This document shows positions 35,265-45,476 of a stretch of 64,000 nucleotides of DNA, piece by piece (the first letter of the stretch is position 1; every line of letters begins with the position of its first letter). Below the pieces are notes generated by a model. It saw nothing but the letters and a program-made list of their open reading frames with translations. It had not been told where the DNA came from and ran no database searches. Source of the stretch: Escherichia coli (lineage in GTDB: Bacteria > Pseudomonadota > Gammaproteobacteria > Enterobacterales > Enterobacteriaceae); NCBI RefSeq assembly GCF_003018235.1, contig NZ_CP027437.1. One strand, given 5' to 3'. Position numbers and translations under genes: made by a program.

Positions 35265-35559
35265 AACCTACCTTTTTTAACCCATACAAAACCGGATCCG
35301 TACTGAACGGACCATGGATGTTTATGTATGAAAAATATTTAAGAGATATTTTTCAGAGGGTTAAAAAAAGATTTCCAACTATGCAATCCTGTCGGTGAGC
35401 AAAGAGATATAGCGAGACTATCAAAACGGCAATTATTGGGTATATGAGTTCAATCAATATTCATGATGGTTATGGCTTGTTCTATTGATCTGACACATTA
35501 AACACGGCGCATTAATTTTGTATGTTTTATGAACAACCCAACAACAAAAGGAGCGCGAT

Positions 35560-35811
35560 ATGACACAGCACGAACGGTTTTGTCAGGCCTGCGGAATGCC
35601 GATGTCCGCACCTGATGCGCAGGGGAGTAGCGATAAATACTGTGCATACTGCAGCGATAGCAACGGCAATCTTAAACCCTGGGAAGAGGCGGTATCAGGC
35701 TTGGCCAGCTTCCTTGATTCCTGGCAAAAAGTCGGTCCAGAAGAAGCACAGAAGCGTGCAAAACGTTATCTGACGGCAATGCCTGCCTGGGCTCATAAAG
35801 CGGACGAGTGA
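35560..35811 (+). CDS. Small zinc-ribbon protein (hypothetical)
   Basis: 83-aa ORF with CQACGMP...CAYCSD (CxxC-N-CxxC). Confidence 0.45.
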   Translation: MTQHERFCQACGMPMSAPDAQGSSDKYCAYCSDSNGNLKPWEEAVSGLASFLDSWQKVGPEEAQKRAKRYLTAMPAWAHKADE

Positions 35812-35875
35812 ATAACAAAGTCAGGGTGATTTAGGCAGTCTATCTTCACTCCGCTGATTCCATTAAGGAGAGCCG

Positions 35876-36268
35876 ATGTTTTCTCACATTATGCTTGGAA
35901 CCAACAACCTGCCACGCGCCATTGCATTCTACGATCCGTTGATGGATATGCTGGGGTATCCCCGCGGCGGCAGGAAGAGGAGATCGCATGGTGGGGCGTT
36001 TTCAACGGTAATAACACTACGGCACTGGGTATCAGTAGGCCATTTGATAAACAGGTTGCCACGACCCGAAATGGAGTGATGGTCGCCCTGATTGCGCGTT
36101 CTGCCGAACACATCCAGCAAGTTTCATGTGCTAGCTTTAAATCACGGTGGCACTGACGAGGGAGCACCTGGCCAGCGTCCGCATTACGGCGAAGGGTTCT
36201 ACAGCGCTTACGTCAGAGACACCGATGGCAACAAGCTGGCTTACGTTTATTACACCGCACAATCCTGA
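35876..36268 (+). pseudogene. VOC/glyoxalase-family gene disrupted by frameshifts
   Basis: The N-terminal part MFSHIMLGTNNLPRAIAFYDPLMDMLGYPR is in one frame. The middle (EEEIAWWGVFNGNNTTALGISRPFDKQVATTRNGVMVALIARSAEHIQQV) and C-terminal (HVLALNHGGTDEGAPGQRPHYGEGFYSAYVRDTDGNKLAYVYYTAQS) parts are recovered only by shifting frame. Confidence 0.6.
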
Positions 36269-36512
36269 GAACGATAAAGCGGGGGCCTCAGCGCCCCCAC
36301 CTGAAACTAAACCGATCCCGCAGATGTCAATGAGCGTTGAACGAGTTGATAAATGCCGAGATGTCTGACTGTTTTTACGCCAGAACTCCATGGTGTGACA
36401 ACCATACACATACTCCCTTCTTGACACCTTTAAACCATTTAACCGCATGCCTCTGTCTGCCCTGCAGGGACGGCTGATGCCTGTGTGTTGTCTGGCGGTA
36501 AGGAACAATACT

Positions 36513-36674
36513 ATGTACGCAAAATCCTTTATCGCTCTCGACGGGAATGGTCGTCTGACCGGTGCCCGTACTGCGCAGACCGCCCCTTACGATCGTTATA
36601 CCTGCCACCTCTGCGGTAGCGTGCTGCAATACCATCCTGAATACATCACCGAACGCCCGTGCTTTGAACAGTAA
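36513..36674 (+). CDS. Small hypothetical protein (53 aa)
   Basis: ATG preceded by AGGA. Contains CHLCGS. No family recognised. Confidence 0.3.
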   Translation: MYAKSFIALDGNGRLTGARTAQTAPYDRYTCHLCGSVLQYHPEYITERPCFEQ

Positions 36675-37266
36675 CCAACACACTGACAGAGGGCGGCGAA
36701 AATGCTTTATGCAAATCTTGATGCAAAGGCAGCCAGACGAATTCGTAAGTTACGCTTTTACGTGGCAGATACTCAAAGCAGACTGGCATTGTAGCGACGA
36801 TTGCCACGGTGAACGCTATTGTATGGCATGTAGTACCTGAGACTTCAGCCGCCCAGTAGATATAGCATCATGAAAAAACTGAAATGCTTTCTTGCCAACA
36901 ACTCACTGAGCTAGTATGCCTCCACCGATGTAACAATTAGAGCAAGCGTCAAAGTGCGAAACTGCCCTCACGTAGCTGCAAGTTAACACCAGGAAATCCT
37001 GGTTCAAACACGACCAGCTCTATGTTAGCGGCAAGCAATCGTTGAACTAAACGCATATGCAGCCGGAGATGAAAGTTAGGAAAAAAGCAGAGGCTGATAA
37101 GAATTATGCACGTTGAGCTGGGATCGTAATACCCCACTTAAAATGTACAAGGGGAGTAGTCTAATGATGTTAAATACGAACCTTCAGTATTGTTCATTCA
37201 CCAATTTTCCCATATTCTCTCATCATTAATATTCTCTGCCGAATTTTATAGGGCTAACTCGCTGAA

Positions 37267-37473
37267 ATGAATGACAAAGCTTTAACCTTGAAAGATGTGG
37301 TGGCTTACTTAAAGTTGGCAGAAAAAACAGCGTATAGGTTGACTAGCGAAGGCAAATTGCCGGGATTTAAGGTTGAAGGCTCATGACGCTTCAAACGAGA
37401 GGATTTAGATATGTGGATTGAAGGTCAGAAGACTCAAAGCTACCCGAGTATCACAAAATCCAATCGTGGTTGA
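37267..37473 (+). pseudogene. AlpA/excisionase-type helix-turn-helix regulator gene interrupted by an in-frame TGA
   Basis: MNDKALTLKDVVAYLKLAEKTAYRLTSEGKLPGFKVEGS-stop-RFKREDLDMWIEGQ. The stop at 37384-37386 sits where this family has a conserved Trp (TGG). Confidence 0.6.
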
Positions 37474-37666
37474 TCAAGTGGATAAACATGAAAAGTCGGT
37501 AGCCCTCAAAGGCCACTTGCCACATGCAGTGAAGCAAGCCGTTGTGCAAGCTCTACTGAAAGAAGGTGATATCGCCCGAACGTTGCTCAAGGATCCACAA
37601 GTTATGGCAAGTTATGTTGAGCTGATTTTCGACATGATGAAGCAGAATAAAAATATGAATATCTAA
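37418..37666 (+). CDS. Hypothetical small ORF (TTG start), overlapping the HTH remnant out of frame
   Basis: 82-aa ORF from the track. Non-ATG start and no recognisable motifs. Confidence 0.25.
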   Translation: MKVRRLKATRVSQNPIVVDQVDKHEKSVALKGHLPHAVKQAVVQALLKEGDIARTLLKDPQVMASYVELIFDMMKQNKNMNI

Positions 37667-37708
37667 AAGATTTTGGGCTATCTATTACGTTTTAAAATGA
37701 GATAAATA

Positions 37709-40246
37709 ATGATAAATGACCATGAAGAACTAGAACTTGCTAAAGCTCAGGCAAAAGAAATATGGAAGATCCTTGATTATGTTCGAGGAGCATCACCTAT
37801 ATCTAATTATCGCTCATTAGCGTATTCAATCTTCTTCGTACGCTATCTTCAATCCAATACAGGTCAGCATTTTGAGGCAGAAAGGTTCGACTCTTTTAAT
37901 GTCATCGCCCAGTATTCCTACGATCTTGTAAACTATGCCGTTCAACTTGGATTGATTCATAGCGACGTATCTAAATTCTTAATTTATTATTTAGAAAACA
38001 CACTCCGTTCATTTGTCAATATTGATGAGTCTTTTGTTCGTTATGCAATTAGAGATGGTCTACTCAATAAAACCCCTGCAATAGCGTCGCTTTCTTTATC
38101 AGAACTGGATTTACTTTTTGCCGAGAATGAAGGTAAGTCAGGAGGTGAGTTTTATACCCCTAGAGACGTCAACTTATTGGTTAAAATATTAGGATTGAGT
38201 TATCAACCAAAGTCAATATGTGACCCATTTGCAGGTGCTGGAAACACAGCATTTCCTTTTGCCAATACTGGTATTGAAAAAGTTAGGATTGATACTCAAG
38301 AAATTAATAGAGATGCTTACTTTAAACTAGTAATAAGTAGAGTCATCAGGAAAATAGAAGGTCGAGACTATTTCGGCGATTCCCTATCACAACCATTATA
38401 TCAAGAAAATAAATATGATCTGATAGTTTCTTTCCCACCTTTTGGCATGAAAATTCCTAAAGCCACTCGAAATAATATTTACTATAAAACAAGTAATAAG
38501 TGGCTGGATATTACTGAAATCTTGCCAGAAAGTAGAAGTGATTGGTTTATAACATTATCAATGCTTCCAGCCCTTTCTGAGGGGGGTAAGATACTAGTAG
38601 GTATGTCACTTGGGGCTTTGACAAGAGCAGGCTCTGAGGCAAAGGTTCGTGAGTATTTAGTCTCTCGCGGAATTATCGAACAAGTAATTCTTTTACCTAA
38701 AAATATTTATTACTCTACGGCTATCTCAACTGTACTTCTTGTCCTCAACTCAGGAACAAGTAACATAAATAACAGAAGTATTAAATTTGTAGATGCTTCA
38801 CTGTTTTACGAGCCTGCCCGTGGTCGAAACACCCTCACAACAAAAAATATAAATGAGATCGTAGAGGCTTGTCATAAAGATGGCCGATTTAGTATTAGTT
38901 CATCTCATACCCAAATAGCAAACAGAGACTTTAATTTAGATCCGTCTCTTTATGTACGTAAAGATCTCAAAATCAGTGAGGTTTCTTTAAAAAATTTTAG
39001 AGGATACTCTGACTTTAAAGTTTCGATACATCCTTCTTTAAATGTATTGGTTGGTGAGAACGGCGTCGGGAAAACTTCGATATTAGAAGCATTAGCATGT
39101 GGCCTTGGTCCTTTCCTTACTGCTATGCCTGATGCTAAAGGAAAACTGATAAAAAAATCAGATATCCATATAAGTTCAAAAGGAATCGCAAATTATGCTC
39201 GAATATCGATTGAAACAACATCAAGTTTAAGTTGGGATCTTGTGGCAAAGGGGGTTGATGTTTCCGAGCCCCCTAAGATAGGAACATCAGCATTAACTAG
39301 CTACGCTACTCATCTTGTAGATAGTCAGTCTGAATATCCACTCATTGCTTATTATGGGACTAACCGTGCTCTTACTTCTACCAGTTCTAAAGTTGCAATA
39401 AATCCATTCGAGAAAGAAAATCGTGGGGAAGGTTATGACTTTGCTTTAGATGCTAAAGTTAACTACGGCATCTTAAAGAACTGGTTTTCAAAAATAGAGG
39501 TTGATGAGCTTCGAAAACGTGATGAACTAAAAGACCATAAATTCATTCATCCGGCTAAGAGACTTGTTTCAGAGGCTGTTTACCAGATTGTTGATCGAGC
39601 TACATGCTTGGAGTTCGACAAAAATAGTAACGATGTTATGGTTCATTGGAAAAATGAGCAGGGAGAGTGCGTAAAGCTTACATTGGAACAACTAAGTGAA
39701 GGGTATAGAAATATGGTATCCCTGACCATTGACCTAGTGAGGCGTGCTTATTTACTTAATCCTACCAAACCGAAACCGCTAACAGTTAATGGGATCGTTT
39801 TAATTGATGAAATTGAACTTCACTTGCACCCTAGATGGCAGCAAAAGATTTTAAATGATCTTACTAAGCTGTTTAAGAATATTCAGTTTATTGTCACGAC
39901 ACATAGTCCTCAAGTCTTAACAACAATCAAAGCCGATTGTATCCGTATTGTTTCCGTCAATGCTAACGAAGCAAAATTAGTGACAGGAACTACTACTTAC
40001 GGTTCTGAAAGCTCAAGAATGTTGGAAGATGTTTTAGGTGGTAACAATCGCGCCCAACATCTTGATATTGTTAAAAAACTAAACCGTTATACAGAGTTAG
40101 TAGAGGCCGACAAATGGGATACCGATGAGGCATTAGAACTCAAAAAAGAGTTATATAAATGGGGTGGTCAGACAGAAGACGAGCTTCAAAAATTAGAAAC
40201 TGATATTCGAATTCGCGAGTTCGAGCGTGGCAATGAAAAAGATTAA
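37709..40246 (+). CDS. Fusion protein: N-terminal HsdM-like N6-adenine DNA methyltransferase domain plus C-terminal ABC/AAA_21-type ATPase domain (PtuA-like)
   Basis: 845-aa ORF. Methyltransferase motifs GGEFYTPRDV, ICDPFAGAGNTAF (motif I) and DLIVSFPPFG (motif IV region). ATPase motifs: Walker A VLVGENGVGKTS, signature-like LSEGYRNMVSL, Walker B VLIDEIELHLHP, H-loop FIVTTHSP. Confidence 0.75.
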   Translation: MINDHEELELAKAQAKEIWKILDYVRGASPISNYRSLAYSIFFVRYLQSNTGQHFEAERFDSFNVIAQYSYDLVNYAVQLGLIHSDVSKFLIYYLENTLRSFVNIDESFVRYAIRDGLLNKTPAIASLSLSELDLLFAENEGKSGGEFYTPRDVNLLVKILGLSYQPKSICDPFAGAGNTAFPFANTGIEKVRIDTQEINRDAYFKLVISRVIRKIEGRDYFGDSLSQPLYQENKYDLIVSFPPFGMKIPKATRNNIYYKTSNKWLDITEILPESRSDWFITLSMLPALSEGGKILVGMSLGALTRAGSEAKVREYLVSRGIIEQVILLPKNIYYSTAISTVLLVLNSGTSNINNRSIKFVDASLFYEPARGRNTLTTKNINEIVEACHKDGRFSISSSHTQIANRDFNLDPSLYVRKDLKISEVSLKNFRGYSDFKVSIHPSLNVLVGENGVGKTSILEALACGLGPFLTAMPDAKGKLIKKSDIHISSKGIANYARISIETTSSLSWDLVAKGVDVSEPPKIGTSALTSYATHLVDSQSEYPLIAYYGTNRALTSTSSKVAINPFEKENRGEGYDFALDAKVNYGILKNWFSKIEVDELRKRDELKDHKFIHPAKRLVSEAVYQIVDRATCLEFDKNSNDVMVHWKNEQGECVKLTLEQLSEGYRNMVSLTIDLVRRAYLLNPTKPKPLTVNGIVLIDEIELHLHPRWQQKILNDLTKLFKNIQFIVTTHSPQVLTTIKADCIRIVSVNANEAKLVTGTTTYGSESSRMLEDVLGGNNRAQHLDIVKKLNRYTELVEADKWDTDEALELKKELYKWGGQTEDELQKLETDIRIREFERGNEKD

Positions 40247-41021
40247 TAAGCTAGATGAGCCAAATCGGCTTGGTGTGTTCAAGGCTACTCATCCTAATGC
40301 TTTGTGGGAGAGGGATAAAAACTCAATTGAAGAGGCTTTCCGTTGTTGCATTGCCAGATATCAAGAAACTCTACAACAATTACGTACGGACCAAGGTAAT
40401 TTATGTGCATATTGTGAACAGGATTTAATGTCTGGAACTAATGGGGCATTAGATGACTGCCGTATTGAGCATTTTCATCCGAAATCTAAACGTGAACAGG
40501 GAGAACCTAATTGGGCTTTGGAATGGAGCAATTTGTTAGTTGTTTGCTGTGGCGGAAATCAAAGTAAAGTTGTTAATCCTGGGCAAAGATTTGATGCTGA
40601 TCCCAAAAATTACTCTTGCGATGTACCAAAGAGTGACAAAATTTTAGATACCATTATATTAAATCCACTTAATTTACCTGAATTAAATATCTGGAAGTTT
40701 CATCGTTCTTCGGGGCAAATTTCCGTAAATGAAGATTCCTGTTTAGAATTTGGTATAAGTGTTGAAATGGCACACCAAACAATTAAAGAATTGAATTTAA
40801 ATTCCCCTCGATTAATTAGATTTCGAAAGGCTATTCTAAATAATCTCAACATTTTAATAACAGAAAGGCTGAAGAAGGGACAAACGGTAGAGCAAGCTGT
40901 TAGATTTATTGCCATATCACTCTTTAGAAAAAATGGAGCAGGTGATTGGCCCTCTTTTTTTAGTGCAACACGATATTATTTAGGTCAGCAGGCTGAGCTT
41001 GTTTTAGCCCAACCTATTTAA
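40233..41021 (+). CDS. HNH endonuclease (PtuB/TIGR02646-like), translationally coupled to the upstream fusion gene
   Basis: 262 aa from MKKINKLDEP. HNH motifs CAYCE, CRIEHFHPKS, NLLVVCCGGN. Its start overlaps the 3' end of the upstream gene by 14 nt. Confidence 0.7.
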   Translation: MKKINKLDEPNRLGVFKATHPNALWERDKNSIEEAFRCCIARYQETLQQLRTDQGNLCAYCEQDLMSGTNGALDDCRIEHFHPKSKREQGEPNWALEWSNLLVVCCGGNQSKVVNPGQRFDADPKNYSCDVPKSDKILDTIILNPLNLPELNIWKFHRSSGQISVNEDSCLEFGISVEMAHQTIKELNLNSPRLIRFRKAILNNLNILITERLKKGQTVEQAVRFIAISLFRKNGAGDWPSFFSATRYYLGQQAELVLAQPI

Positions 41022-41040
41022 CATACTTTCAACTAGTTAG

Positions 41041-41063
41041 AGAGGCTGCTTTTGGCAGCCTCT
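41041..41063. terminator. Hairpin between convergent genes (AGAGGCTGC-TTTTG-GCAGCCTCT), likely bidirectional terminator
   Basis: Perfect 9-bp stem with a 5-nt loop in the 60-bp gap between the 3' ends of the convergent genes. Confidence 0.55.
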
Positions 41064-41081
41064 TGCAGAGTGCAGAATCGA

Positions 41082-42515
41082 CTACAGGGGCGATGCTAGC
41101 TCAGAGAACCAAGCGTGAACTGATCTGTAAAATGTGCTGATTGACCAAAACTCACTGCATGCAGCAACTAACAGAATGACCACTAAGAGGATCACTACAG
41201 TAGAAGTCATTCTTTCCACACGGCAGTATGATCCCATCGCATCTTTTACAGGTTGTCTAGCCAGTTCCTGATAATCCAGCTCATCCAGAAATCCGTATAA
41301 TTTAGTTCTCCAGGTGGTTCTAACTCTTTCAAGTAATGAAATTGTTTGCCTATTAATATAGACAGACATTCCATAGGAAATAACTATATAAACCGCGATA
41401 GCACAAAAAACCAAAGCGTAAATATTTTGCAAACCAACTGATTTTACTGCATCCAGACTGTAGCGAATAACCAAGACACTAATTACAAGAGCCATATCTT
41501 TCCATAAGGAAGAGGACAAATCTCGGGATTGCTGAATGATCTTTTGTGTATCTTCAGCCAGCGTTTTCCGCAAATCACCCAAGGATTTCATAGTATCTTT
41601 ACCACCAGTCCTGATATGGGCCTTATACATTAACCGTGCAGACTCCAAAGCTGATGAGAGTCGAAGCATCACTCCCTCACAAAAGTTCAGGTCTGAAGGC
41701 CACTCTCTAGCCAGCTCGCTGGACAAAAACGTATGTTTCAGCTCAGTTTCATTCCCCTCTAGAAAAATCCACTTTGCCGCTTCCTGGATAATATCAAAAG
41801 CAGGTAACGCTGCCGTCTCATCGCCGAATGCTATTTTTCTGGGAGGCTTTCCCGCAAGCCCCACCATCATTTCGTCAGCAAAAAAAAGTTCATTTGCAAA
41901 ACATTTCAGCAACTCTCGGCATCCTAGCAATTTCCATATCTTGATTGCTTCATCAGTCTTCTCACTACAAGTTTCAAGTATCCAAGGGGCAATGGCATCT
42001 GGAGGAAGAAAAGTTGTTGAATAACATTTGATGATACTTTTTGTTACTGAAGGCTTAGTGATAGCTGTTGCATCACCAGCACTCACCGGCTGTATCTCCT
42101 TCCATGGATGCACATACCAACTTATTGTCTGAAAGCCTTCAGTAATAAACAGCCCATAAATATGTTTGTACCGACAGAGTTTGCTATCTTGAAGTAAAAA
42201 AGTGCGCCATCCTTCTAAGGTAAAAAGCCTCAGTATCCCCGGAATTTCATTATAAGTGATGGTAATGTAGTGCTTCTGCCCTGGGACCCCCTCTCTCGGA
42301 TGAATAACATCTCTGCTCTCATCGATAAAAACGATCTTGAGATCTTCCGCATGTACATCCACTATTTCTCCCCATAAATCAAGGGATTCACTATCCATTG
42401 TGGCGGAAATAAAAAGCTTATGGATAGACACCTGCTGGTCCTCTGTGATCACAAGGTCAGATAAATGTCGTGAGTGGCATATAGCCTTACCGATTTTTTC
42501 CAATATCGATATCAT
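41082..42515 (-). CDS. Hypothetical protein with two C-terminal transmembrane helices (membrane-anchored), second gene of a two-gene cassette
   Basis: 477-aa ORF. Hydrophobic stretches LVISVLVIRYSL...IYALVFCAIAVYIVISYGMSVYI and TSTVVILLVVILLVAACSEFW. No recognisable catalytic motif. Confidence 0.5.
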   Translation of the reverse strand: MISILEKIGKAICHSRHLSDLVITEDQQVSIHKLFISATMDSESLDLWGEIVDVHAEDLKIVFIDESRDVIHPREGVPGQKHYITITYNEIPGILRLFTLEGWRTFLLQDSKLCRYKHIYGLFITEGFQTISWYVHPWKEIQPVSAGDATAITKPSVTKSIIKCYSTTFLPPDAIAPWILETCSEKTDEAIKIWKLLGCRELLKCFANELFFADEMMVGLAGKPPRKIAFGDETAALPAFDIIQEAAKWIFLEGNETELKHTFLSSELAREWPSDLNFCEGVMLRLSSALESARLMYKAHIRTGGKDTMKSLGDLRKTLAEDTQKIIQQSRDLSSSLWKDMALVISVLVIRYSLDAVKSVGLQNIYALVFCAIAVYIVISYGMSVYINRQTISLLERVRTTWRTKLYGFLDELDYQELARQPVKDAMGSYCRVERMTSTVVILLVVILLVAACSEFWSISTFYRSVHAWFSELASPL

Positions 42516-43548
42516 CTGTTACCAATCCTGCAGTCACAATTACAATTCGTTTTCGCCCGTCTTCCATATTTTCTACTTCTGGTGCATTGTCTTCATCGTA
42601 GATAATGATTACATCTTCCAATGTTTCCAGTTTTCTCTTCCGGGGCTTCTGAATGTTATCGGGAATGATGCGGAAAGATTCACCTGAAATTCCTAAATCC
42701 TTTATTTTACGAAAAAAATACTTAACCAGAGGGTGTTCTTCCTCCAAAGGACCAAAAATCTGGGTCAACAATGGCAGTGCTTCATCAGTATTAAAATCCT
42801 GTTCGCCATGGCGTAAAGTTTCATAAATTTTGTTTACTCCGCTGCGCTTGATCTCTTCAGGTAGTAAGTTTCGATGCTTTTTATATACATCTTTTAATAC
42901 AGTAACTAGCTTATCGCTGAGCTGAGTTGGGTCATTGACGCGCTTAACCTGTAGAAATCGTTCAAAATAGACAGAGATGTTAGTACGTTTGCTGCGATCT
43001 CGTACGACAACTAATCCGCCCGGCAAATCTTCATTCAGCCGTACCAGTGCGATTTTCTGCATGGCTTCGGCTTTTTTAACGAAACTTTCGCGAAAGCGTT
43101 CGAGTTTAGGTACCTGAAACTCATCTCCTTCAACATCCAGCACATAACGGACTACATCTTCATTGTCATACTTAATCAACGCATACAGTTTCTCATCGTT
43201 GAGTGTATGAAGTTCAAAAAGGAAAAAAACGCCCATACTGGCATTCTTGGTATGGTGGTGAGACTGAAAATCGCTTGCCAATAAGGAGGATTGCTCAGTA
43301 AAGCAGCCGATATCGGTGTCTGCATGTTCCCTGATGATCCTCAGGATTCGCTCTGTATTTGACAACTCCTTAAAATGAAACATATTGCCACTAACTGCAG
43401 ATTTGATACGTTCCAGAAAGAAATCAACATGCTCCGGAGGGGAAATTTCGCTGAGTAAAACAGGGACTTCCAACTCACCGCCAACCACATGAAAAATCAT
43501 CCTTTTTATTGATAATGCATTGATTTCTTCATCCGTTAAAAAACTCAT
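42487..43548 (-). CDS. Hypothetical cytoplasmic protein (353 aa), first gene of the two-gene cassette; weak NdpA/YejK-like resemblance at most
   Basis: ATG start confirmed. Overlaps the downstream ORF by 29 nt. Acidic C-terminus. No confident domain assignment. Confidence 0.5.
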   Translation of the reverse strand: MSFLTDEEINALSIKRMIFHVVGGELEVPVLLSEISPPEHVDFFLERIKSAVSGNMFHFKELSNTERILRIIREHADTDIGCFTEQSSLLASDFQSHHHTKNASMGVFFLFELHTLNDEKLYALIKYDNEDVVRYVLDVEGDEFQVPKLERFRESFVKKAEAMQKIALVRLNEDLPGGLVVVRDRSKRTNISVYFERFLQVKRVNDPTQLSDKLVTVLKDVYKKHRNLLPEEIKRSGVNKIYETLRHGEQDFNTDEALPLLTQIFGPLEEEHPLVKYFFRKIKDLGISGESFRIIPDNIQKPRKRKLETLEDVIIIYDEDNAPEVENMEDGRKRIVIVTAGLVTDDIDIGKNR

Positions 43549-43744
43549 TTTTATTTCTCAATATAGTGTTTATATTTACTACCGTGAGCCATCTTACCTA
43601 AGCGTAGAACGTGGCGGAAAACACGATAACATTATTGCATAGCTTACGGCGTAACTTATCCTCGCCCCAGACAGAATAAACGTCAAAATAAAATAATGAA
43701 AATATGATCGAGACAGCATTAGCTGCCCCGCTTTCTTAGACTTT

Positions 43745-44998
43745 TTACATTATTAGGGCAAAATCAAACGGACTCACCCCCTTCTCCCGATTCGCATCCA
43801 GATAATTTGCCCACCACTGCAGCATCAACCTACGCTCCCCAAGATGTTCCGCCTTATGGATGTATGCCGCCCGCACAGAGCTACGCTCCTGATGGCTCAT
43901 CTGCCGCTCCACTGCATTCCTCGACCACAATCCTGATTCAATAAGTGAACTACAGGCCATCGTCCTGAAACCATGCCCACAGACTTCCGTTTTGGTGTCA
44001 TAGCCCATAACTCGCAAAGCCTTGTTCACCGTATTCTCACTCATCGGCTTATGCGGATCGTGATCGCCCACAAAAATCAGCTCTCGATTTCCATTCATGC
44101 TTTTGATCTTTTCCAAAATAGCTAAGGCCTGCCGCGATAAGGGTACAAGATGGGGAGTTCGCATCTTCGAACCACGCTGAGAATGTTTAACACCGTCCAA
44201 CGGTTCACGCTCACCGGGGATCGTCCACATGGCCGTTTCAAAATCCACTTCTGACCAACGGGCAAAGCGCAGTTCGCTTGAACGGATGAAAACTAACAAA
44301 GTGAGTTCGACAGCCAGTCGAGTTAACGGCCTGCCGGAGTAATGATCAATGCGGTGAAGTAATTCAGGTATGCGGTTAAGCTCCAGAGCCGCACGATGCT
44401 GTCTTTTAGCAGTAGCAACCGCACCGGTAATCTCTTGCGCGGGGTTGTAGTCGATTAAGCCGCTCTGAACGGCAAAGCGCATAATCGCGGTAGTTCGCTG
44501 CTGTAAACGGGCGGCGACTTCAAGACGTCCGGATGACTCCACCGCTTTAATGGGTACAAGAAGATCCCGAGTCTTAAGCTCTGCAATGTTCCGCTTACCG
44601 ATAGCAGCAAAGAGATTATCTTCTAGGCTTTTCAATACACGAGCACTATGCGATGCAGACCACTTCTGATTACTGGCATGCCAGTCTCTGACGACCACTT
44701 CAAACGTTATCGCCTCTTGCTCCTGTTCTACCTTAACCGCTTTCTTGTTTTCACTGGGATCGACGCCGTTCGCTAAAAGCTTACGCGCTTCGTCTCGCCG
44801 CGATCGAGCATCAGCTAACGAAACTTCAGGATACTTCCCTAGCGCCAGCATCTTCTCTTTACCACCGAAACGATAACGAAGCCGCCAGTATTTGGAGCCG
44901 TTAGGGTGAACCAGCAAAACCATGCCTTCACCATCAGTAAGTTTATAGGCTTTTGCTTCAGGCTTTGCCGAACGAACCTTCACATCACTCAGAGCCAT
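43745..44998 (-). CDS. int: P4-family tyrosine integrase
   Basis: 417 aa from MALSDVKVRSAKPEAKAYKLTDGEGMVLLVHPNGSKYWRLRYRFGGKEKMLALGKYP (P4-type integrase N-terminus). Catalytic region HGFRTMA...Y. Lies directly beside the tRNA-Leu 3' end. Confidence 0.9.
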   Translation of the reverse strand: MALSDVKVRSAKPEAKAYKLTDGEGMVLLVHPNGSKYWRLRYRFGGKEKMLALGKYPEVSLADARSRRDEARKLLANGVDPSENKKAVKVEQEQEAITFEVVVRDWHASNQKWSASHSARVLKSLEDNLFAAIGKRNIAELKTRDLLVPIKAVESSGRLEVAARLQQRTTAIMRFAVQSGLIDYNPAQEITGAVATAKRQHRAALELNRIPELLHRIDHYSGRPLTRLAVELTLLVFIRSSELRFARWSEVDFETAMWTIPGEREPLDGVKHSQRGSKMRTPHLVPLSRQALAILEKIKSMNGNRELIFVGDHDPHKPMSENTVNKALRVMGYDTKTEVCGHGFRTMACSSLIESGLWSRNAVERQMSHQERSSVRAAYIHKAEHLGERRLMLQWWANYLDANREKGVSPFDFALIM

Positions 44999-45196
44999 GA
45001 TGAATATCCTTTCAAGGGTTCTGTGTGGGTACAAACATTATCGAACCGGGATATACCCGCAGTTGTACCCGCATCAGTAAGTTGATGTAGATTGAATCAG
45101 GTTGACTTAGGTTGAGTGAAAAAGCGAGGAAAGCCTTGCGGATACTGGATTTCAGGCATAAAAAAAGACCTCAGTTGAGGTCTATTTACATACTTA

Positions 45197-45281
45197 TGGT
45201 GCCGAAGGCCGGACTCGAACCGGCACGTATTTCTACGGTTGATTTTGAATCAACTGCGTCTACCGATTTCGCCACTTCGGC
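45197..45281 (-). tRNA. leuX: tRNA-Leu (anticodon CAA)
   Basis: The minus-strand sequence reads GCCGAAGTGGCGAAATCGGTAGACGCAGTTGATTCAAAATCAACCGTAGAAATACGTGCCGGTTCGAGTCCGGCCTTCGGCACCA (85 nt), with a CAA anticodon loop and a CCA end. Confidence 0.9.
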
Positions 45282-45476
45282 ACTGAAGAGGTATGCGGAA
45301 AACGTTGTGGATTATACCTGTCGCACGCCACCATGCAAGCGCCAGCTTGCTCGCACCTCGCTAAGTGCTGAAATTTTCAGCATTGCATACAGTGATGTGT
45401 AACCTTTGTCACACTCCAGGCACCCCGCCCTGCCATGCTCTACACTTCCCAGACAACACCAGAGAAGGACCAAAAA

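Follow-up and report, generated by a model that had tools for sequence, protein, structure and literature searches.

A 64,000-nucleotide stretch of an Escherichia coli genome (RefSeq assembly GCF_003018235.1, contig NZ_CP027437.1), referred to here as the window, carries at positions 37709-41021 two overlapping genes in which a methyltransferase-like domain is joined to the ATPase of a Septu defence system and followed by an HNH nuclease. The locus raises the question of what a methyltransferase is doing in front of a Septu ATPase. The original prediction proposed a restriction-modification-like (R-M-like) system in which the fused domain modifies DNA or senses its modification. The evidence set out below identifies the module as a Septu variant whose methylase domain has lost its catalytic residue and kept its cofactor pocket, and whose homologues recurrently adjoin type I R-M operons. 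Together these features point, tentatively, to a domain that detects phage counter-measures against type I restriction.

The first gene, at 37709-40246 on the plus strand with an ATG start, encodes an 845-residue protein, delineated as an open reading frame (ORF) and characterised with Pfam, PADLOC and an AlphaFold2 (AF2) model as a fusion of an HsdM-like pseudo-methyltransferase and a PtuA ATP-binding cassette (ABC) ATPase. All of the motifs that had been quoted for it are in place. Those of the methyltransferase are GGEFYTPRD (residues 145-153), DPFAGAGNT (172-180) and SFPPFG (241-246); those of the ATPase are the Walker A sequence GENGVGKTS (449-457), the LSEGY signature (662-666), the Walker B sequence LIDEIELHLHP (698-708) and the H-loop TTHSP (730-734). 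The profile of Pfam family N6_Mtase, PF02384, matches residues 137-418 (E 7e-42) and those of AAA_23, SMC_N, AAA_15 and AAA_21 match within residues 421-750, bearing out both the methyltransferase and the ATPase assignments. The PADLOC model for PtuA (PDLC00278) is matched by residues 420-843 over positions 1-435 of 436 (E 4.7e-106), and among PDB sequences the protein matches Septu PtuA (8ee4, E 2.7e-40), Ec83 PtuA (E 3.8e-41) and the PtuA of retron Ec78. A structural model built from 56 homologues (predicted local distance difference test, pLDDT, 83.7; predicted template modelling score, pTM, 0.76) returned in Foldseek the PtuA structures 8eea and 9e90 and the type I HsdM 3LKD, in agreement with the two-part protein envisaged. 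PADLOC and PDB matches place the PtuA ABC ATPase at residues 419-845 (38963-40246, plus strand), including the C-terminal PtuB-binding region, and all of its ATPase motifs are invariant across the fusion family. The protein thus carries a full PtuA, the ATPase component of Septu.

The second gene, ptuB (40233-41021, plus strand), encodes a 262-residue HNH nuclease, assigned from the PADLOC PtuB model, TIGR02646 and alignment to Ec83 PtuB. A mechanical ORF list starts it at a GTG at 40227, whilst RefSeq uses the ATG at 40233; with the latter, the overlap with the fusion gene, whose TAA stop codon occupies 40244-40246, is exactly the 14 nucleotides that had been reported. The protein contains CAYCE, EHFHPKS and VVCCGGN, and its reading as an HNH nuclease holds, with a PADLOC PtuB match at E 1.9e-100 and a TIGR02646 score of 83.6 bits against a cutoff of 52.15. 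Its closest PDB match is Ec83 PtuB, and His80, within EHFHPKS, aligns with the histidine mutated to alanine in the Ec83 PtuB structure 9o4a and is the predicted catalytic residue. A PtuB gene lies directly after the fusion gene in all 12 independent homologous loci that were compared, with the HNH core kept in each, and PtuB is the obligatory partner of the fusion protein. A TIGR02646-family HNH gene therefore stands immediately downstream of the ATPase, and the PtuA/PtuB logic attributed to the module is upheld by full-length PADLOC matches to both components.

In a word-indexed search, 68 clusters (90% identity) were found to share the fusion architecture, which argues that the genes are real rather than chance ORFs. 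The hosts include Klebsiella, Yersinia, Providencia, Pectobacterium, Serratia, Pantoea, Aeromonas and Vibrio, together with Photobacterium, Shewanella, Pseudoalteromonas, Plesiomonas and Undibacterium. An exhaustive hidden Markov model search of 1.84 billion representatives with a profile of the N-terminal domain gave four 50%-identity clusters at 491-641 bits, below which, leaving aside some short pieces of family members, came ordinary methylases at no more than 190 bits. The family is thus tight and narrowly spread in the Gamma- and Betaproteobacteria. No full-length fusion was present among 72,556 plasmids or 50,697 phage records, and plasmid or phage carriage was set aside as far as those collections reach. 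The homologues in all 68 clusters are annotated only as 'N-6 DNA methylase'. Full-text literature searches turned up no description of an HsdM-PtuA fusion, although they do not exclude an earlier mention elsewhere, and to that extent the claim that no Septu with a fused methyltransferase had been described stands: the module is a Septu sub-type with no earlier description found.

What, then, does the fused domain retain of a methyltransferase? Its core, residues 137-418 (38117-38962, plus strand), has the N6_Mtase fold (PF02384) with the S-adenosylmethionine (SAM)-binding motifs X, I, II and III intact. It is preceded by a shortened version of the helical N-terminal domain of HsdM (residues 1-136; 37709-38116, plus strand), for which the Pfam search gave no match; hhalign aligned it from residue 9 and the AF2 model is all-helical there. 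Overall, hhalign placed family residues 9-417 on positions 5-473 of the 522-position HsdM profile (probability 100%, E 5e-58). In EcoKI, the HsdS coiled coil is contacted by the C-terminal part of HsdM, residues ~470-529 (PMC2647291). Judged by alignment, PtuA, which starts at residue ~419, stands in place of this HsdS-binding region. No target-recognition domain is found in the fusion protein.

The catalytic motifs were compared between 64 members of the fusion family (the window protein and 63 full-length clusters) and 16 canonical HsdMs. Alignment of the core to residues 188-475 of EcoR124 HsdM (520 residues) pairs FPPF with the catalytic NPPY, so that a degenerate motif IV, F242-P-P-F245 (38432-38443, plus strand), replaces N-P-P-F/Y. 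The original prediction had noted an 'xPPF region'; the PPF is indeed present, but that x is a phenylalanine at the position of the catalytic Asn/Asp had gone unremarked. All 16 canonical HsdMs have asparagine at this position, as opposed to a single fusion-family member (Phe 57, Leu 4, Ile 1, Cys 1, Asn 1), leaving 63 of the 64 with another residue. The motif VIII aromatic, equivalent to F345 of EcoKI, is Phe in 16 of 16 canonical HsdMs and His or Tyr in 58 of the 64 fusion proteins (His 45, Tyr 13, Phe 5, Leu 1). Meanwhile, the two prolines and the second aromatic residue of motif IV are retained, and SAM motifs X (FYTP), I (DPxxGxG), II (QE) and III (D/N) keep their canonical residues and are nearly invariant. 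N6-adenine methylases generally lose methyl transfer when the catalytic residue of motif IV is substituted. Its EcoKI counterpart, N266, forms a hydrogen bond with the flipped adenine, and that base is held between F269 of motif IV and F345 (PMC2647291).

In comparison with Klebsiella, the methyltransferase core has a ratio of nonsynonymous to synonymous substitution (dN/dS) of 0.086, and in comparison with Aeromonas one of 0.16; the values are 0.07-0.08 for the PtuA part, 0.14-0.16 for PtuB and 0.25-0.30 for the N-terminal helical domain. Since the value for the core is near that of PtuA, the core is functional rather than decaying; a degenerating pseudogene domain was rejected on the basis of dN/dS values of 0.09-0.16 and the invariant motifs. 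The family-wide loss of the motif IV asparagine, the retention of the SAM motifs and purifying selection together identify the domain as a conserved pseudo-methyltransferase, with a remodelled base-binding and catalytic pocket and an intact cofactor pocket. Of the hallmarks of an active HsdM, the SAM motifs are present, whilst motif IV, the HsdS-binding tail and an hsdS and hsdR at the same locus are lacking. Active, sequence-specific modification by the fusion protein is very unlikely on this evidence. The R-M-like modification role that had been proposed thus finds no support, given the missing asparagine in 63 of 64 members and the lack of a target-recognition domain and an HsdS-binding tail; an active methylase, or a self-contained R-M system, was rejected on these grounds and on motif VIII.

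A different connection with R-M emerges from the genomic context of the homologues. A type I R-M operon adjoins the fusion-ptuB pair in 8 of the 12 independent loci, a small sample, and in seven of these eight the pair lies downstream of hsdR on the same strand with at most two genes between. An hsdM-hsdS-hsdR operon is directly upstream, on the same strand, in Klebsiella (L006-L010), Pseudoalteromonas (L015/L016), Undibacterium (L003), Moritella (L017) and Vibrio crassostreae (L102); hsdR-ygjP is upstream in Shewanella (L004) and hsdMSR-mcrBC in V. parahaemolyticus (L099), and in Plesiomonas (L101) hsdMSR is convergent. Several of these loci have overlapping stop and start codons. As a control, 79 plain PtuA loci were taken from a genome scan on a generic PtuA motif that also recovered one new fusion locus (L017); with the same way of detecting them, type I genes were found near ~5 of the 79, compared with 8 of the 12 fusion loci (Fisher's exact p 6e-6).

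The V. parahaemolyticus locus has a further elaboration: an McrB-like protein (with DpnI_C and DUF8425 domains) and McrC are inserted between hsdR and the fusion gene (L099 5274-8995), giving one same-strand array of a type I R-M system, a type IV McrBC system and the Septu variant.

The type I operons concerned fall into at least five unrelated families, with HsdRs 20-31% identical, whilst the fusions are 45-76% identical to one another. The similarities are also discordant, in that the Moritella fusion is 76% identical to that of Shewanella whilst the Moritella and Undibacterium HsdRs share 80% identity. Since the HsdR families are unrelated and the patterns of similarity discordant, the association with type I operons has arisen repeatedly; co-inheritance as the sole cause of the adjacency was rejected for the same reasons. 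A recent duplication of the neighbouring hsdM was rejected, since the methyltransferase domain and the HsdM beside it share only 22-27% identity. This recurrent adjacency, which the original prediction did not remark upon, points towards a function as guard or decoy and away from an R-M system complete in itself.

Independent counterparts of the fusion are found outside the family. An 849-residue protein of Photobacterium carnosum (P0069; L005 6001-9293) combines a full HsdS with a PtuA ATPase; a divergent PtuB-like gene follows, and the whole unit lies between hsdM and hsdR-ygjP. No other full-length HsdS seems to be encoded in this operon, and the locus looks like a hybrid of type I R-M and Septu in which PtuA would form part of the M2S1 core. 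In a metagenomic protein (P0093; L097 752-3639 and L098 913-3800), an HsdM-like domain with the motif IV sequence SIPPFN is fused to the ABC ATPase of HEC-01, HEC-01A, and its gene is followed by a DUF4276 gene, with no type I genes on the contig. Domains that derive from R-M enzymes and have degenerate catalytic motifs have thus become attached to defence ABC ATPases on more than one occasion.

The explanation favoured here, on the strength of the type I adjacency, the pseudo-enzyme features, the parallel fusions and precedents in Ronin, PrrC, PARIS and retrons, is that the module is a Septu variant whose fused pseudo-HsdM input domain detects phage counter-measures against type I methylase cores; it is put forward tentatively, as the leading candidate rather than as a probable one. 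In stand-alone and retron-linked Septu, PtuA oligomers hold PtuB quiescent, and ATP and ADP stabilise that state (PMC13376987; PMC12819146). In retron I-A a sensor composed of reverse transcriptase (RT) and multicopy single-stranded DNA (msDNA) couples to the effector through an N-terminal extension of PtuA (PMC12819146). PrrC is released upon inhibition of EcoprrI by Stp, and PARIS senses Ocr (PMC12707154). In Ronin, HsdMS is the decoy at which Ocr, ArdA and Aop1 are drawn in, and methylase activity is not required for this (bioRxiv 10.1101/2023.04.06.535777).

By analogy, a PtuA-PtuB oligomer would be kept quiescent in the uninfected cell, with pseudo-HsdM arms serving as a built-in bait or guard for type I restriction. 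A phage counter-measure directed at type I methylase cores, such as a DNA-mimic inhibitor (Ocr, ArdA) or the destruction of SAM by a SAM lyase, would change the state of the pseudo-HsdM domain; the PtuA assembly would then rearrange and the PtuB HNH nuclease would be released to cut nucleic acid and abort the infection. Two versions may be distinguished. The domain could be a protein bait for DNA-mimic inhibitors, which precedent favours, or it could be a sensor of SAM occupancy responding to phage SAM lyases, which would account for an invariant cofactor pocket alongside lost catalytic residues. It is attractive to consider that a dead, SAM-binding HsdM domain is a portable 'integrated decoy', recruited independently by PtuAB and HEC-01 and with a counterpart in HsdS-PtuA, but as a generalisation this is doubtful.

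A number of observations weigh against this explanation. The trigger is wholly inferred, as are the way in which the signal is passed on and what PtuB cuts. Type I genes are absent within 8-9 kb on each side of the Aeromonas caviae and Serratia ureilytica copies and, for the E. coli copy, across the 64-kb window, so that any link with R-M must act in trans or be dispensable in these hosts; one short contig with the fusion also lacks type I genes nearby. The search for type I genes around plain PtuA loci rested on phmmer seeds only, and the comparison drew on only 12 fusion loci. The 3' ends of type I operons may be no more than favoured landing sites for defence genes. One family member, P0067, retains NPPF. 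Finally, strict conservation of the SAM pocket is not needed by a pure protein decoy, which fits the SAM-sensing version better, and Ocr is normally enclosed by HsdS and two HsdMs (PMC2647291), of which HsdS is absent here.

The strongest competitor, albeit an unlikely one, is that the pseudo-HsdM domain senses nucleic acid or its modification state, binding DNA and flipping a base into a hydrophobic pocket formed by F242, F245 and a Tyr/His at 334. Such a domain might read methylated, hypermodified or unmodified adenine, or clamp foreign DNA, steering PtuAB to phage DNA in a type IV- or R-M-like manner. The nature of the substitutions lends itself to this idea. The motif IV asparagine is nearly always replaced by a bulky hydrophobic residue (Phe, Leu or Ile; Cys once), isoleucine occupies the position in the HEC-01A fusion, and the prolines and second aromatic residue are kept, suggesting a selected pocket rather than random decay. 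Furthermore, stand-alone Septu PtuAB nicks DNA (PMC12819146; PMC13376987), and an adjacent type I system could provide protective methylation. Against this, the lack of a target-recognition domain, HsdS or HsdS-binding tail leaves no evident source of sequence specificity, and the stacking phenylalanine of motif VIII is not kept. A common methylation mark is also unlikely when the neighbouring type I families are unrelated, and a reader of N6-methyladenine would risk autoimmunity in E. coli, whose DNA already carries this mark from Dam and type I enzymes.

It is rather improbable that the domain has no part in sensing attacks on restriction and is instead a structural or oligomerisation appendage, or a SAM-dependent stabiliser, of an ordinary Septu triggered like canonical PtuAB by ATP depletion or a phage structural protein. 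Canonical Septu does work without such a domain, with ATP regulating it and phage tail fibre sensitising it (PMC13376987; PMC12819146), and copies of the fusion that stand alone exist. This proposal, however, leaves unexplained the enrichment of type I operons, the parallel HsdS-PtuA and pseudo-HsdM-HEC-01A fusions and the invariant SAM pocket.

At a similarly low level of likelihood is the possibility that the HsdM-like domain is a physical adaptor which docks PtuAB onto HsdS, HsdM or HsdR of the neighbouring type I enzyme, making PtuB the second nuclease of a hybrid complex or restraining it as EcoprrI restrains PrrC (PMC12707154). Reading frames coupled directly to hsdR in four loci (L003, L004, L017 and L102) would suit such an arrangement, as would the Photobacterium HsdS-PtuA, apparently the only full-length HsdS available to its operon. 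The fusion, however, is without the C-terminal HsdM region that contacts HsdS, its methyltransferase domain has only 22-27% identity with the HsdM next to it, and copies stand alone in E. coli, Aeromonas and Serratia. One fusion family beside at least five type I families (HsdR 20-31%) likewise argues against a specific interface, and family-specific docking between the fusion and a type I enzyme appears improbable. The weakest proposal is the first one made, that an active adenine methyltransferase marks self and PtuAB restricts unmarked DNA: the N6_Mtase fold, the intact SAM-binding site and the NPPF of P0067 speak for it, but with the asparagine equivalent to EcoKI N266, which hydrogen-bonds the target adenine (PMC2647291), missing in 63 of 64 members, the window protein included, with the motif VIII stacking phenylalanine lost and with no target-recognition domain, it is very improbable.

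The surroundings of the module in E. coli bear on how a guard of type I restriction could act there. The module lies in a genomic island anchored at the tRNA-Leu(CAA) gene leuX (45197-45281, minus strand; ARAGORN and RefSeq), with a P4-type tyrosine integrase gene (43745-45034, minus strand; NCBIfam integrase domain and RefSeq); the tRNA-linked integrase island in which it had been placed is thereby confirmed and the defence-island context supported. Positions 37000-45300 are 99.9% identical to E. coli CFSAN018748, and this stretch is present in only 2 of 5,426 complete E. coli genomes. A 3.65-kb block (window 37441-41087) is 95.5% identical to Klebsiella pneumoniae L007 7733-11379, where the counterpart island is likewise at tRNA-Leu. 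In Klebsiella a 146-residue ORF without a Pfam match sits between hsdR and the fusion gene (L007 7518-7958); comparison with that locus identifies the small upstream ORF at 37418-37666 (plus strand) of the window as a remnant of its C-terminal part, marking the left edge of the shared block. The remnant has a weak PADLOC match to the C-terminus of PDC-S15 (E 4e-6). It was rejected as a conserved third gene of the module, being truncated and not kept in the other loci.

On the far side of the island lies an AlpA-like helix-turn-helix gene with an in-frame stop (~37269-37390, plus strand), and just upstream of it an IS3-family ISEc31 insertion element (~35400-36600). No attachment (att) repeat was found between 33 and 45.3 kb. 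The broken AlpA-like gene, the ISEc31 element upstream of it and the missing repeat suggest that the island is a truncated remnant, its distal end probably worn away by the IS3 element; a type I R-M operon upstream, still carried by the Klebsiella version, may have been lost. In the matching E. coli genome an unrelated EcoAI-family hsdR-hsdM-hsdS operon is present in the immigration-control region, ~52 kb from the island (L104 29052-38472), flanked by DUF262/GmrSD-type genes, HNH genes and symE. Thus the host does possess type I restriction, and the Septu variant could guard it in trans. A scan for promoters and terminators gave counts no different from the shuffle level.

Between ptuB and the integrase gene are two overlapping genes of low GC content (41082-43548, minus strand). 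One encodes a 353-residue NA37/YejK-like 'nucleoid-associated protein' (PF04245, E 1.5e-12) and the other a protein of 477 residues (449 in RefSeq) with hydrophobic C-terminal segments and no match in Pfam, PADLOC or NCBIfam. The pair may be a candidate uncharacterised two-gene defence system.

Septu is among the commonest anti-phage systems, yet little is understood of how PtuAB on its own senses an infection. A natural PtuA variant with a recognisable input domain offers a concrete hypothesis for the trigger, namely anti-restriction proteins or the loss of SAM, and would extend to Septu the guard and decoy layer of bacterial immunity represented by PrrC, PARIS and Ronin. The parallel HsdS-PtuA and pseudo-HsdM-HEC-01A fusions suggest a general design rule whereby components of R-M enzymes are put to new use as sensors. 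If the integrated decoy were real, it would be a bacterial analogue of the integrated decoys of plant nucleotide-binding leucine-rich repeat (NLR) receptors and, were it to respond to SAM, the first defence under the control of the SAM pool. In practical terms, the RefSeq label 'N-6 DNA methylase' is probably a wrong functional call, and a profile-based tool such as PADLOC, scoring the PtuA and PtuB parts only, would probably report a plain Septu and miss the additional domain.

Both parallels and differences can be drawn between the module and known systems. With HsdM it shares the fold, the order of an N-terminal helical and a catalytic domain, and the SAM-binding motifs; unlike HsdM, it has neither the motif IV asparagine nor the motif VIII phenylalanine, its N-terminal domain is shortened, PtuA replaces the HsdS-binding region and no cognate HsdS or HsdR is present in this island. 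The ABC ATPase and nuclease effector recall PrrC/EcoprrI and PARIS (AriAB), which serve as a second line of immunity once type I restriction comes under attack. The gene for PrrC lies within an hsd operon, and the protein relies on being physically associated with EcoprrI. Neither PrrC nor PARIS has a methylase-derived domain, however, and their nucleases are of the anticodon nuclease or Toprim type rather than HNH. Ronin, comprising an HsdS-HsdM decoy and RonA, resembles the module in using type I methylase parts without HsdR; it needs no methylase catalysis and is often found on integrase-linked islands of E. coli (bioRxiv 10.1101/2023.04.06.535777). Its HsdM and HsdS are separate, HsdM being catalytically intact, and its effector is a 61-residue membrane toxin, RonA, whereas here a catalytically degenerate HsdM-like domain alone is fused to an ATPase-nuclease effector. 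No RonA, hsdS or separate hsdM is present in the island, where the effector is the PtuB HNH nuclease, and the likeness is one of architecture only.

Retron type I-A, or Septu type II (Ec78/Eco7, Ec83), likewise places a PtuAB effector under an added sensor module at the PtuA N-terminus, but that sensor is a separate RT-msDNA complex and not a fused protein domain. The PtuAB of retron Eco7 reportedly cleaves tRNA. From the IS3 element to the integrase, neither the annotation nor the ORFs reveal an RT, a negative that comes with no Rfam scan for msr non-coding RNA, and the NCBIfam retron-type models score below their cutoffs (PtuA 329 against 500, PtuB 127 against 150); since an RT is missing and these models fall short, the module is not assigned to retron I-A. 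Also close is Septu type I, reportedly described by Doron in 2018 as a PtuA ABC ATPase with a PtuB HNH nuclease and represented by the structures 8EE4 and 8EEA. In common with it, the module is a two-gene operon with overlapping frames, a full-length PtuA that has all of the motifs and the C-terminal PtuB-binding region, and a PtuB HNH nuclease with its catalytic histidine. Canonical PtuA begins at the ATPase, whereas here ~420 pseudo-methyltransferase residues precede it, and the association with type I R-M is a further difference. Thus, by its defining components, the module belongs to the Septu family.

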